A stretch of 37,385 nt of DNA from a virus (Duplodnaviria; Heunggongvirae; Uroviricota; Caudoviricetes), in the IMG/VR virus record IMGVR_UViG_2651869691_000008. One strand, given 5' to 3'. Made by a program: the position numbers and the translations under genes. The notes beneath the pieces were generated by a model. That model did no database searches. It was not told the origin of the DNA and was given only the letters and a program-made list of their open reading frames with translations. Shown here piece after piece: positions 701 through 34,632 of the stretch (within the stretch, counting starts at the first letter, position 1; each line of letters starts with the position of its first letter).

Positions 701-776
<76 letters not shown>

Positions 777-829
777 GTTTAAAAGGCATCGGCGTCAGCG
801 GATGTCTGGCTGAAAGGCCTGAAGAATTT

Positions 830-903
830 GGCGCGTTAACAAAGCGGTTATGTAGCGGATTGCAAATCCGTCTAGTCCGGTTCGACTCCGGAACGCGCCT
901 CCA
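830..903 (+). tRNA. cysT: tRNA-Cys (anticodon GCA)
   Basis: GGCGCGTTAACAAAGCGG...GATTGCAAATCC anticodon loop...GGTTCGACTCCGGAACGCGCCTCCA. Confidence 0.9.
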
Positions 904-915
904 CTTTCTTCCCGA

Positions 916-1002
916 GCCCGGATGGTGGAATCGGTAGACACAAGGGATTTAAAATCCCTCGGCGTTCGCGCTGTGCGGGTTCAAGTCCCGCTCCGGGTAC
1001 CA
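916..1002 (+). tRNA. leuZ: tRNA-Leu (anticodon TAA), long variable arm
   Basis: GCCCGGATGGTGGAATCGGTAGACACAAGGGATTTAAAATCCC...GGTTCAAGTCCCGCTCCGGGTACCA. Confidence 0.9.
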
Positions 1003-2010: not shown

Positions 2011-2151
2011 TTACTGCTTACACTGTAAGAACGCCGCAAACTCCGCTCCCCAGAAGCTCATCCGTATTTCACACAGCGAACCGTGTAGCATCCAGATGAT
2101 GAGGATTACCGTCACGCAGAACGTGATGGCCGTAAGCGATTTTTGCGACAT
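2011..2151 (-). CDS. Hok/Gef-family type I toxin (46 aa, single TM helix)
   Basis: minus-strand ORF MSQKSLTAITFCVTVILIIWMLHGSLCEIRMSFWGAEFAAFLQCKQ, not in the ORF track because <60 aa; AAGGAG RBS 8 nt upstream; SLCEIR and E.AAF motifs typical of Hok; 3' hairpin GACGGGGGATTGCTCCCCCGTC at 1979-2000 and terminator at 1891-1931. Confidence 0.6.
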   Translation of the reverse strand: MSQKSLTAITFCVTVILIIWMLHGSLCEIRMSFWGAEFAAFLQCKQ

Positions 2152-31786: not shown

Positions 31787-32108
31787 GGTGTGGCCCCTTG
31801 TGTAGTAAGTTGTGAAAACTCACCATCCAGAGCTGCGAAACTGTGGGTGGCGAGACGTACGAGGTTCGCAGTACCGGCTACACAAGAACCCGGCCCGACC
31901 GAAGTCGGCCCCGTACGCCCCGCCATAATTCTGACGCGAAAAAAACGTGGCAATACAGTACGCACAAAAAAACCGCTGGCGCGGTTGTGCGCTTGTGTAG
32001 TCAGCAGGCTGCGAAACCCGACACCCGTTTTGTGAGGTGCAGCGGAAATGTAACCTGACTGATTGCGGCATGGCAAGCGGTTTTTTTGTGTGTGCATGTT
32101 CTGGTTTC

Positions 32109-32894: not shown

Positions 32895-33311
32895 CTATGC
32901 GTGAAATACGGCACGTTGCGTGTCATCAATGAATACAGCTTGAGAGCGTTCTATCAGGCGGAGATTTGTCAGAAGCTCTGACTCTTTTGTGTGGTAAGGC
33001 GTTATCAGGTAGTTGCCGTGCAGTTCGGCAATAATGGTGTATTGCGTCATTATTGCCGAACCAAGAATGTAAATGCGGCGTCCAATGCTGGACGGATTCA
33101 TGGCTGCAACTGTTGACTGTGTTTTAAGAGTGTCGATTTCTTTGCCCTGTTCCTCAATAATTTTGGCTGCTTCAGAGGTGGCTATTGCGATGGTCAGTGC
33201 GTAAAGCGCTGCCATATGTTGATTATCTTTCTGGGCTGCCCTGGACAGCTTGTCTTGCTCTGCTGACACTATTTTTAATGTATTGATAATATTTTTTTCT
33301 TTTGCGTTCAT
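32895..33311 (-). CDS. hypothetical protein (AT-rich)
   Basis: 138-aa ORF in an AT-rich segment. Confidence 0.45.
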   Translation of the reverse strand: MNAKEKNIINTLKIVSAEQDKLSRAAQKDNQHMAALYALTIAIATSEAAKIIEEQGKEIDTLKTQSTVAAMNPSSIGRRIYILGSAIMTQYTIIAELHGNYLITPYHTKESELLTNLRLIERSQAVFIDDTQRAVFHA

Positions 33312-33403
33312 TTTATATCTCCGTTATTTACGTGTGCGAATACCTCCGCGAATGCGGATAGTTTTCAGGTTTTCGGGTTTAATCTGGTGTTTTGTTTAAG
33401 CTA

Positions 33404-33517
33404 TTATTTGTCAGTGAAAAAGCGTTCAATCTTTTTTACTGAATGAATAATTCGCATAATCCCAATGGCGCAGGCCACCGAAATAATCAGAACAAGCCAT
33501 GAGATAAATATACTCAT
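33404..33517 (-). CDS. 37-aa hydrophobic peptide (single predicted TM helix, basic C-terminus)
   Basis: MSIFISWLVLIISVACAIGIMRIIHSVKKIERFFTDK; ATG overlaps the stop of the upstream 80-aa ORF (ATGA); GGGGAA RBS; not in the ORF track because <60 aa. Confidence 0.35.
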   Translation of the reverse strand: MSIFISWLVLIISVACAIGIMRIIHSVKKIERFFTDK

Positions 33518-33756
33518 GCGATATTCCCCAGCTTATACGGTTCAATGTGTTCCCCGCATTCTGCGGCACAGATCAGCTCGGAAAGTTCGTTCAGTGCATC
33601 CAGATCATCAGCGTAAAAAGCAACGTCATACAAACTCCGGATTGCCCTGGTCAATGAGTCACGGGCTGCATGTTCAGCATGAGCGCCTGATGCACTTAAG
33701 CGAAAATAAAATCGTTCAAGTGCTTTGTTAATGAGAGTTTTATATTCTTTGCCCAT
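33514..33756 (-). CDS. hypothetical early-operon protein
   Basis: 80-aa ORF. Confidence 0.45.
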   Translation of the reverse strand: MGKEYKTLINKALERFYFRLSASGAHAEHAARDSLTRAIRSLYDVAFYADDLDALNELSELICAAECGEHIEPYKLGNIA

Positions 33757-33767
33757 CGCAACGCCCT

Positions 33768-34046
33768 TTAATCTGCTTTCTGAATTTCAGCTTCTGAATC
33801 CATACAAATAATTTCGATATAGGGTTCATCGCCATTAACCTGACGTGCCTTTTCAGCTTCGCTAATGATTTCTCGTACGGTCTGGTACGGAAGCTCCACA
33901 GTCAGGCGCGTACCGTTCAGATAAACGTAAGTAGCTGCGTTTTTTTCGGATGGAACAACTCCGTCAATGGCTGATGCGCGTAATAACAGTTCACCGCGAA
34001 AATCAATAAAACGGATAAATACACCTTGTGCATGCTCTTTGGTCAT
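33768..34046 (-). CDS. hypothetical early-operon protein
   Basis: start refined to ATG at 34046 (AGGTG RBS) within the 33768-34106 ORF. Confidence 0.45.
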   Translation of the reverse strand: MTKEHAQGVFIRFIDFRGELLLRASAIDGVVPSEKNAATYVYLNGTRLTVELPYQTVREIISEAEKARQVNGDEPYIEIICMDSEAEIQKAD

Positions 34047-34056
34047 AAAGCACCTG

Positions 34057-34407
34057 TTATAAATCAGCCTGTTTAATAAAACTTTGCCCGCGAAGCAGAC
34101 GATCAACCGTGCGAAGTGCTTCGTATAATGTGAAATCCTGCCCGAAGTGATTGTCGCCGCAGTTCAATGCAAAAATGCGGTTTCCGGTAAACGGATTGCG
34201 TGGGCATTTGTGGACCACGATTCCAGCTTTCTCAATCAGCCAGGCATGCTCGCCGATTTGTTTTACAGCGTGGCCATCCGGTGTTGCGTGCGTCTCGTTC
34301 AGGTTATAGCGACTGTTACTACGTGATGCACTGGTAGCGACGTGGTGTACATGGCGTTCTACGCCATTACGAAATTTGGAGTATGGATTATTAGCGTTTT
34401 TTTTCAT
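34057..34407 (-). CDS. hypothetical early-operon protein
   Basis: 116-aa ORF after the Cox-like gene. Confidence 0.5.
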   Translation of the reverse strand: MKKNANNPYSKFRNGVERHVHHVATSASRSNSRYNLNETHATPDGHAVKQIGEHAWLIEKAGIVVHKCPRNPFTGNRIFALNCGDNHFGQDFTLYEALRTVDRLLRGQSFIKQADL

Positions 34408-34428: not shown

Positions 34429-34632
34429 TTAGCTGTTAGCCAAAGCGTCTTTTAACATCGCCACAAGGTTTACTTCAGGCTTTTCCATTTTGGCGCGTTT
34501 GGGGCGGATAATAATTCGACCGTCAGCCAACATCTTTTTGCATGTATTAAGAGGGATACCTGTTATCTCTGCATATTTCTGCAGGGATACATAGGGGGCA
34601 TTCACATTGATATTGATGGTTATACCTGACAT
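34429..34632 (-). CDS. Cox/excisionase-like HTH DNA-binding protein
   Basis: 67 aa; YVSLQKYAEITGIPLNTCKKMLADGRIII resembles the HTH of P2 Cox / AlpA-type excisionases; AGGAGG RBS. Confidence 0.55.
   Translation of the reverse strand: MSGITININVNAPYVSLQKYAEITGIPLNTCKKMLADGRIIIRPKRAKMEKPEVNLVAMLKDALANS

Follow-up and report, generated by a model that had tools for sequence, protein, structure and literature searches.

The DNA analysed here is a stretch of 37,385 nucleotides (nt) from IMG/VR record IMGVR_UViG_2651869691_000008 (hereafter the window, by which we mean the whole stretch), which is a complete P88-like (Xuanwuvirus) prophage of the P2 family from Escherichia coli. Our subject is a small open reading frame (ORF) at 33404..33517 on the minus strand, which encodes a peptide of 37 amino acid residues (aa) and starts on the stop codon of a gene of the DUF4754 family. 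The small ORF is a genuine protein-coding gene. Purifying selection is seen in this frame and in no other, and the product of the small ORF is more constrained than its DUF4754 neighbour. This conclusion was drawn from the conservation of the frame, the pattern of substitutions, the kept Shine-Dalgarno-like motif and the relative identities of the two proteins. The features of the small ORF and its upstream partner are as follows.

33404..33517, minus strand: small ORF, 37 codons and TAA, encoding MSIFISWLVLIISVACAIGIMRIIHSVKKIERFFTDK (direct reading, annotations and conservation)
33514..33517, minus strand: ATGA start/stop overlap, a termination-reinitiation junction, present in 175 of 175 loci
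33524..33529, minus strand: Shine-Dalgarno-like GGGGAA within the last DUF4754 codons, its GGGG at -12..-9 relative to the ATG
33514..33756, minus strand: DUF4754 gene, 80 aa, the upstream partner (Pfam PF15946, E = 8.7e-54; phrog_2549)
33455..33511, minus strand: predicted transmembrane segment IFISWLVLIISVACAIGIM, codons 3-21 (Wimley-White, Kyte-Doolittle and AlphaFold2)
33407..33454, minus strand: basic juxtamembrane region and tail RIIHSVKKIERFFTDK, codons 22-37, predicted to be cytoplasmic

Read directly on the minus strand, the small ORF runs ATGAGTATATTT...GACAAATAA, beginning with ATG AGT ATA TTT and ending with GAC AAA TAA, and its product is MSIFISWLVLIISVACAIGIMRIIHSVKKIERFFTDK followed by the stop. 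The ATG (33517-33515) overlaps the TGA (33516-33514) of the 80-aa DUF4754 ORF to give ATGA. An earlier reading of the window, made from the DNA letters without database searches (the sequence-only reading), had proposed this 37-codon frame with its ATG on the stop of the 80-aa ORF, and the proposal was exact on re-reading. Its further claim, that the frame is translationally coupled within an early operon, is supported by the ATGA junction and by the positional conservation of the Shine-Dalgarno-like motif. The coupling architecture is conserved among the related loci described below: ATGA is kept even in lineages in which the peptide identity is 54-70% and the DUF4754 identity is 31-42%, and the Shine-Dalgarno-like motif is held at -14..-8 across lineages (GGGGAA, GGGAAA, GAGGAG, GAGGTG or AGGAGG), with varied DUF4754 C-termini under it (KLGNIA, IEELA, TEVAA and IQEEA). 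The same reading called the ORF unannotated, which is false for the public records, since RefSeq, GenBank and UniRef all list it. The product of the small ORF is RefSeq WP_000021655.1 ('hypothetical protein') in E. coli AR_0013, with 100% identity, and UniRef A0A0C2F1Q7 ('Prophage membrane protein'); gp07 of phage P88 (YP_009113050.1, 'membrane protein') is 94.6% identical to it, and the record of vB_EcoM-569R5 labels it 'putative membrane protein'.

To compare the frame among relatives, we gathered related loci with DUF4754 as the bait, with the peptide as the bait and from phage records, which yielded 175 loci representing 117 distinct sequence contexts. All 175 loci have the ATGA junction, and a frame of 37, 41 or 45 aa follows it in 172 of them. 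The frame lengths are distributed as follows.

37 aa: 140 loci
41 aa: 26 loci
45 aa: 6 loci
59 aa: 1 locus, a frameshifted 41-aa form
30 aa: 1 locus, phage Chuche, in which codon 31 is TAG
25 aa: 1 locus, phage 503458

The sequence-only reading had named disruption of the frame in close relatives as evidence against a gene, and on this test the gene was not refuted, the frame being intact in 172 of the 175 loci. The 25-aa frame of phage 503458 is probably a sequence error, because the same record has indels in DUF4754. In this record (NC_049341.1, locus L085, 125-470), DUF4754 and the small ORF are both broken by several indels, one of which adds an A to the A-run, and these disruptions are probably homopolymer sequencing errors, not true pseudogenes.

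Selection was examined by parsimony counts on a neighbour-joining tree of 49 distinct alleles, using the first 90 nt. Synonymous changes numbered 87 (17.3 sites) and non-synonymous changes 86 (72.7 sites), corresponding to a ratio of non-synonymous to synonymous rates (omega) of about 0.24 (binomial P = 5.6e-20), and the changes at codon positions 1, 2 and 3 numbered 30, 15 and 52. The omega values were 0.80 and 1.55 in the other sense frames and 0.77, 0.35 and 1.53 in the antisense frames, and all five of these frames gain stops. The check on the synonymous-substitution pattern that had been suggested for this ORF therefore came out in favour of a gene, and in this frame only. Between lineages, the pairwise ratio of non-synonymous to synonymous divergence (dN/dS) was 0.2-0.3, with dS ranging from about 0.9 up to saturation. 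In relatives, stops interrupt both a 47-codon alternative frame and an 88-codon frame on the opposite strand. The identity of the peptide across lineages was 70, 62 and 54% where that of DUF4754 was 42, 42 and 31%, respectively. Among 63 distinct peptides, residues S6, W7, L10 and I24 never vary, F4, I11, A17 and G19 hardly vary, and R22 is R, Q or K.

The peptide had been described in the sequence-only reading as one transmembrane helix followed by a basic tail, and the hydrophobicity, the charge and the AlphaFold2 model uphold this description as a prediction. Residues 3-21 have a Wimley-White octanol free energy of -11.6 kcal/mol and a mean Kyte-Doolittle value of 2.68, and they form the most hydrophobic 19-mer in a set of 128 ORFs of 30-60 aa with ATG starts, drawn from all six frames of the window. 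AlphaFold2, with an alignment of 20 sequences, gave one continuous helix over residues 2-35 with a mean predicted local distance difference test score (pLDDT) of 87. The C-terminal flank of the hydrophobic segment contains five Lys and Arg residues (net charge +3), and the N-terminal flank (MS) is without charge. The positive-inside rule is well established for membrane proteins and, because the positive charge is on the C-terminal side only, an orientation with the N-terminus out and the C-terminus in is predicted. Together, these properties suggest that the peptide is a single-pass inner-membrane microprotein with the N-out/C-in topology. We also considered a lipoprotein or a signal peptide and rejected both: the peptide is without an N-terminal charge or n-region, and SVAC at residues 13-16 lacks the hydrophobic residue at -3. 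C16 is not conserved and is M in the 41-aa clade. A holin or antiholin was likewise rejected, the small ORF being in the early operon and not beside an endolysin; the annotated relative has its lysis cassette (lambda-family holin, M15 peptidase and LysB-/LysC-like genes) some 15 kb off, in the late region.

The consistently retained part of the peptide is residues 1-28. The intact forms of 37 and 41 aa have K-x-I-E-x-[FL]-F-[TS]-G/D in common, and the 41-aa forms end with KRRK. Alternative tails arise where indels hit the A6 run (33431-33437) or the T5 run near it, among them the 45-aa ...RFSLxNN... and ...RLNAFSL... forms, a 34-aa form, a 30-aa ...KKD form and also one of 50 aa. An in-frame dnaX-type heptamer, A_AAA_AAG, is present at 33431-33437 on the minus strand (codons V27-K28-K29), where a -1 shift would yield ...VKKD and a stop, a 30-aa product to which the shift adds one residue only. 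Programmed -1 frameshifting was rejected, because the heptamer is missing in the 41-aa clade, which has LKNI, LKDI or IKTI there. From this absence, the A_AAA_AAG run is probably a mutational hotspot, not a programmed site.

The 80-aa ORF upstream encodes a full-length DUF4754 protein. In P2-like early operons, the small ORF always comes directly after DUF4754 in the stretch from Cox to gpA, whatever the other neighbours are, and the two genes co-occur in every locus that was found with either of them as the bait, so that their linkage is constant. The distribution of DUF4754 is narrow, like that of the peptide. The AlphaFold2 model of DUF4754 is a two-helix hairpin (pLDDT 88), and comparison of the model with PDB and BFVD returned generic helical bundles only (E > 0.4). 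Proteins of 103-128 aa named 'DUF4754' were considered as fusions with the peptide and rejected; they arise by frameshifted reading into the alternative frame and are for the most part singletons found in read assemblies. Note that the GenBank record of phage P88 (KP063541.1, 2648-3117) labels the DUF4754 region 'DNA modification methyltransferase', and the RefSeq version has a DUF4754 family protein; the GenBank label is probably a mis-annotation in the original submission.

The peptide is a member of an unnamed, DUF4754-linked family of small transmembrane proteins of P88-like prophages. The core of the family is M-[SN]-[IV]-[FL]-x-S-W...A-[IV]-G-I-M-R-I-I together with a start that overlaps the stop of the 80-aa DUF4754 gene, and the small ORF has both. 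An exhaustive HMMER search against 1.84 billion representatives returned 9 proteins only, all of which are family members. A profile headed by the 41-aa homologue gathered 154 clusters (90% identity). Their members come exclusively from Escherichia, Shigella or Salmonella and bear no other name than 'hypothetical' or 'membrane protein'. A scan of the GTDB species representatives found two loci only, in agreement with a narrow host range. In Pfam, PHROG, NCBIfam and PADLOC, no family matched the peptide (the best hits were PF15786 with E = 0.19 and phrog_5620 with E = 0.36), and against the PDB sequence profiles its matches were no better than E = 1.1. In the literature, we found no papers on 'DUF4754' or on the peptide sequence, and the P88 genome paper is silent on gp07.

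Several other small membrane ORFs were seen in these loci. In locus L104 (1639-1734; also in L102-L111), a second small hydrophobic ORF of 31 aa, MKNVKAILTIATVWVIFQVSALIWLALKIWE, starts 12 nt past the stop of the 41-aa homologue, and the hairpin element described below was not found immediately downstream of it. Further small transmembrane ORFs in P88-like early operons are P88 gp11 (67 aa) and a 45-aa ORF in locus L087 (3246-3383). A copy of the prophage module with 99% identity is also present in NZ_JBQPOM010000071.1 (locus L003), a contig assigned to the Gram-positive 'Vagococcus sp. WN89Y', which is probably a contamination or a mis-assigned assembly.

The module is widespread within its host range. 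The 601 bases around the small ORF are 100% identical to those of E. coli AR_0013, and, of 5426 complete E. coli genomes, 1362 matched the region with the small ORF, O157:H7 strains among them. The matches in the phage collection were Xuanwuvirus P88, P884B11, 520873 and 503458, together with Citrobacter phage Shae_phiSM and relatives. The small ORF is the fifth gene of the early operon, in which the order on the minus strand is the Cox-like gene, the DUF4761 gene, the 92-aa gene, the DUF4754 gene and the 37-aa ORF. A gap of 92 nt follows, and then a 138-aa gene, small genes including a MarR-type regulator, and replication endonuclease A. The fraction of G+C (GC) at 33250-33549 is 0.36, the lowest in the early region (other values are 0.41-0.59), and the sequence-only reading was therefore correct in placing the small ORF in an AT-rich part of this region. 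The remaining features of this neighbourhood are as follows.

34429-34632, minus strand: Cox-like gene (phrog_575)
34057-34407, minus strand: DUF4761 gene
between the DUF4761 and DUF4754 genes, minus strand: 92-aa gene
33332..33366, minus strand: conserved non-coding element with an A-rich tract, the hairpin UCCGC-AUUC-GCGGA (33345-33358) and GGAGG

The non-coding element lies between the small ORF and the 138-aa gene, at the border of the conserved module and the variable cargo genes, and it is present in nearly all related loci, whichever gene comes next. Its layout is GAAAAC-n-A, followed by the hairpin UCCGC-AUUC-GCGGA and then by GGAGGTATTCGC. The five pairs of the hairpin are formed in 98.9% of cells, with one compensatory change from C-G to U-A, and the loop varies. 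The folding energy of the hairpin region was not significant in comparison with shuffled sequences on either strand. The element is without a U-tract on the operon strand, and on the plus strand it resembles an intrinsic terminator, with a hairpin followed by a T-rich run. Its position is that of tR1 in phage 186 and of the putative terminator in P2.

Elsewhere in the early operon, Rfam identified a C4 antisense RNA (31843-31930, minus strand; 83 bits) and an IsrK-like RNA, isrK (31966-32040, minus strand; 62 bits). These RNAs sit upstream of a gene that is labelled 'derepression protein' in P88 relatives, and their placement suggests an antisense-controlled antirepressor module of the P1/P7 type in a P2-like prophage. 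At the other end, the window extends past the ogr/Hok side of the prophage and includes three tRNA genes (701-999, plus strand; Rfam 54-69 bits). Just past the ogr end of the prophage there is a 46-aa Hok/Gef-like ORF, MSQKSLTAITFCVTVILIIWMLHGSLCEIRMSFWGAEFAAFLQCKQ (about 2011-2151, minus strand), which is labelled 'Hok/Gef family protein' in the nearly identical AR_0013 region and is a genuine type I toxin gene.

We consider it fairly probable that the small ORF encodes a co-translated membrane microprotein of P88-type prophages with a non-essential, accessory function in host take-over, exerted via the DUF4754 protein and/or a host membrane protein. According to this explanation, the small ORF would be transcribed only as part of the early lytic operon, on infection or induction. 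Ribosomes that finish DUF4754 would reinitiate at the ATGA, aided by the Shine-Dalgarno-like motif, and because of the reinitiation at the overlapping ATGA, the DUF4754 protein and the peptide would be made together. The peptide would then insert so that its N-terminus of two residues is outside and its basic tail on the cytoplasmic side, and it may act by specific protein contacts of the conserved helix and the juxtamembrane segment (residues 1-28). Its likely partners would be the DUF4754 product, which might be tethered to the membrane in this way, and/or a host inner-membrane protein, and the outcome would be an accessory contribution to host take-over during infection or induction and not a free-standing pore-forming toxin. 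Enterobacteriaceae commonly have short hydrophobic ORFs that evolve under purifying selection and share 1-4 nt with an adjacent gene, and these ORFs have been proposed to act on the products of such genes (PMC11188072).

Several observations weigh against this explanation. The last approximately nine residues of the peptide are swapped in natural frameshift alleles, of which the allele with the frameshift tail (P0146, the 34-aa form) occurs on 388 contigs, and some alleles are truncated or without the 5' end (P0200, 75 contigs). The conservation shows no significant one-sided helical periodicity among the 63 peptides (permutation P = 0.39), and a single conserved helix face as a packing interface was rejected on this ground. 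A part of the residue 'invariance' is due to shallow divergence, because the family is confined to closely related Enterobacteriaceae. The Sakai RIBOseq study of small genes, which worked with uninduced cultures, does not have the peptide in its supplements. AT-rich DNA by itself inclines to encode hydrophobic peptides (PMC11188072), and the local GC is 0.36. Because the hairpin model of DUF4754 has no informative fold match, it is the linkage of the two genes that suggests DUF4754 as a partner. Library, profile and PDB searches also showed no homology of the peptide to characterised proteins.

More specific or different roles can be weighed on the same evidence. In the boldest version, DUF4754 and the 37-aa peptide would form an undescribed two-part early effector, in which the microprotein tethers or activates the soluble hairpin protein at the inner membrane; we regard this as a tentative idea with a minor chance of being correct. 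Another specific version of the preferred explanation makes the peptide an inhibitor of cell division that would act on a membrane component of the divisome, as a counterpart of Fil of phage 186 or Kil of lambda. Small transmembrane division inhibitors exist, and the size and single-transmembrane architecture of the peptide would fit a mode of action like that of the small membrane peptides SidA of Caulobacter or gp56 of SPO1, an assignment that we find doubtful. The small ORF occupies the same place in the operon as 186 fil/dhr, flanked by the switch genes and by the non-essential region that precedes A. However, this positional analogy is weak in a mosaic region, DUF4754 was unrelated to Dhr in our comparison, and the peptide gave no alignment with Fil at E <= 100 by BLASTP and a probability of 0.55% by hhalign. 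The likeness by eye between the C-terminus of 186 Fil, LIIRIVHFVIK, and IMRIIHSVKK was rejected as not significant. These considerations make inhibition of division, by analogy with Fil or Kil, unlikely. A factor for superinfection exclusion or membrane defence, which would block the DNA entry of other phages, is suggested by the small inner-membrane protein of a prophage, as are the exclusion proteins of other temperate phages, and by the adjoining boundary of cargo swapping, which is reminiscent of moron or defence loci. However, the small ORF is in the conserved module and not among the variable cargo, PADLOC gave no match, and, as inferred from the biology of P2 and 186, the Cox-side early lytic operon is expected to be silent in the lysogen under the immunity repressor. 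We therefore regard such a factor as very unlikely.

The sequence-only reading had also pointed to a type I toxin-like architecture, and it had named modulators of division or transport as further candidates, a role that the peptide may have. The part of the toxin proposal that stands is the small hydrophobic helix, as a prediction; the locus architecture, the antisense RNA and the family matches do not bear it out. A membrane-depolarising peptide checked by an antisense RNA, which would kill or arrest the cell when expressed, would be in line with a short hydrophobic helix that has a basic end, like those of Hok, TisB or Ldr, and with a promoter-like match on the opposite strand (33263-33292) and the terminator-like hairpin (33345-33358) nearby. 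However, the promoter and terminator matches occur at the rate of shuffled sequences, and the putative antisense unit would end about 40 nt past the stop, without overlapping the ORF. A search with Rfam over 33150-33800 gave no RNA family at the gathering threshold or at E <= 10. Moreover, the small ORF is inside a long operon and ATGA-coupled to the upstream gene in all 175 loci, it has no promoter or structured leader of its own, and it matches neither Hok/Gef nor another toxin family, although the true Hok/Gef is recognisable in the same window. The invariant polar and small residues also argue for specific contacts. We thus give this mode of action a very slim chance, and the small ORF is not a type I toxin: the toxin reading fails because the ORF is operon-internal and ATGA-coupled and no antisense RNA was found. 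Finally, the peptide itself might be inert, either as a by-product of AT-rich DNA or because only the act of translating matters, bringing ribosomes up to the hairpin, protecting the message or preventing Rho termination. The GC of 0.36, the conserved hairpin 45 nt downstream and the tolerance of the tail to frameshifts are in line with this. However, there is selection at the amino-acid level (omega about 0.24), with invariant residues and conservative replacements, and the peptide is more conserved than the neighbouring protein. A purely translational role is contradicted by these data, because it would not constrain residues, and we find an inert peptide hardly credible.

The existence of the gene was already known, in that the databases hold it with an automatic 'membrane protein' label. 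The present analysis adds the selection on its frame, its invariant pairing with DUF4754, the greater conservation of its core relative to the partner, and the rejection of the toxin-antitoxin reading. If the peptide modulates a membrane machine of the host, it would be a phage-derived probe or inhibitor of that machine, and a portion of the early region, so far uncharacterised, would gain a role in a prophage lineage that is widespread. The two-part effector, if true, would shut off a host process (division, transport or envelope signalling) during the development of P88-type phages and would represent a novel module for host take-over, carried by roughly a quarter of the complete E. coli genomes.

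Among known entities, P88 gp07, WP_000021655.1 and A0A0C2F1Q7 are the same gene, at the same place after DUF4754 and with the same 4-nt overlap; these records carry an automatic label only, without a function or an experiment attached. The type I toxins (Hok/Gef, TisB, Ldr and Ibs) are likewise small hydrophobic alpha-helical peptides but differ in locus architecture, the small ORF being operon-internal and coupled; the searches for an antisense RNA and for a family match were both negative. The genes fil/dhr of phage 186 and orf78/B of P2 are in the same slot, from the Cox/Apl switch gene to the non-essential region upstream of A, and they are short, overlapping genes, fil and dhr overlapping by 14 nt. 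However, no similarity of these genes to the small ORF or DUF4754 was detected, Fil, Dhr and Orf78 are not predicted to be transmembrane proteins, and the early operons of P2 and 186 are without a comparable small transmembrane ORF. AcrZ, MgrB, MgtS, SgrT and SidA, the last a division inhibitor of Caulobacter, are small single-transmembrane regulators that constitute a functional class and not a homology family. The peptide is similar to this class in having fewer than 50 aa, one transmembrane helix, a short charged tail and conserved helix residues; it differs in showing no sequence similarity to them, in being encoded by a phage and in its coupling to a soluble protein whose gene lies upstream. 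The small ORFs described in PMC11188072 are similar in their hydrophobicity, purifying selection, overlap of 1-4 nt and inferred action via the product of the neighbour, whereas the present ORF was already annotated and is prophage-specific. The small ORF is thus one more conserved small membrane protein, from a class known to be large.

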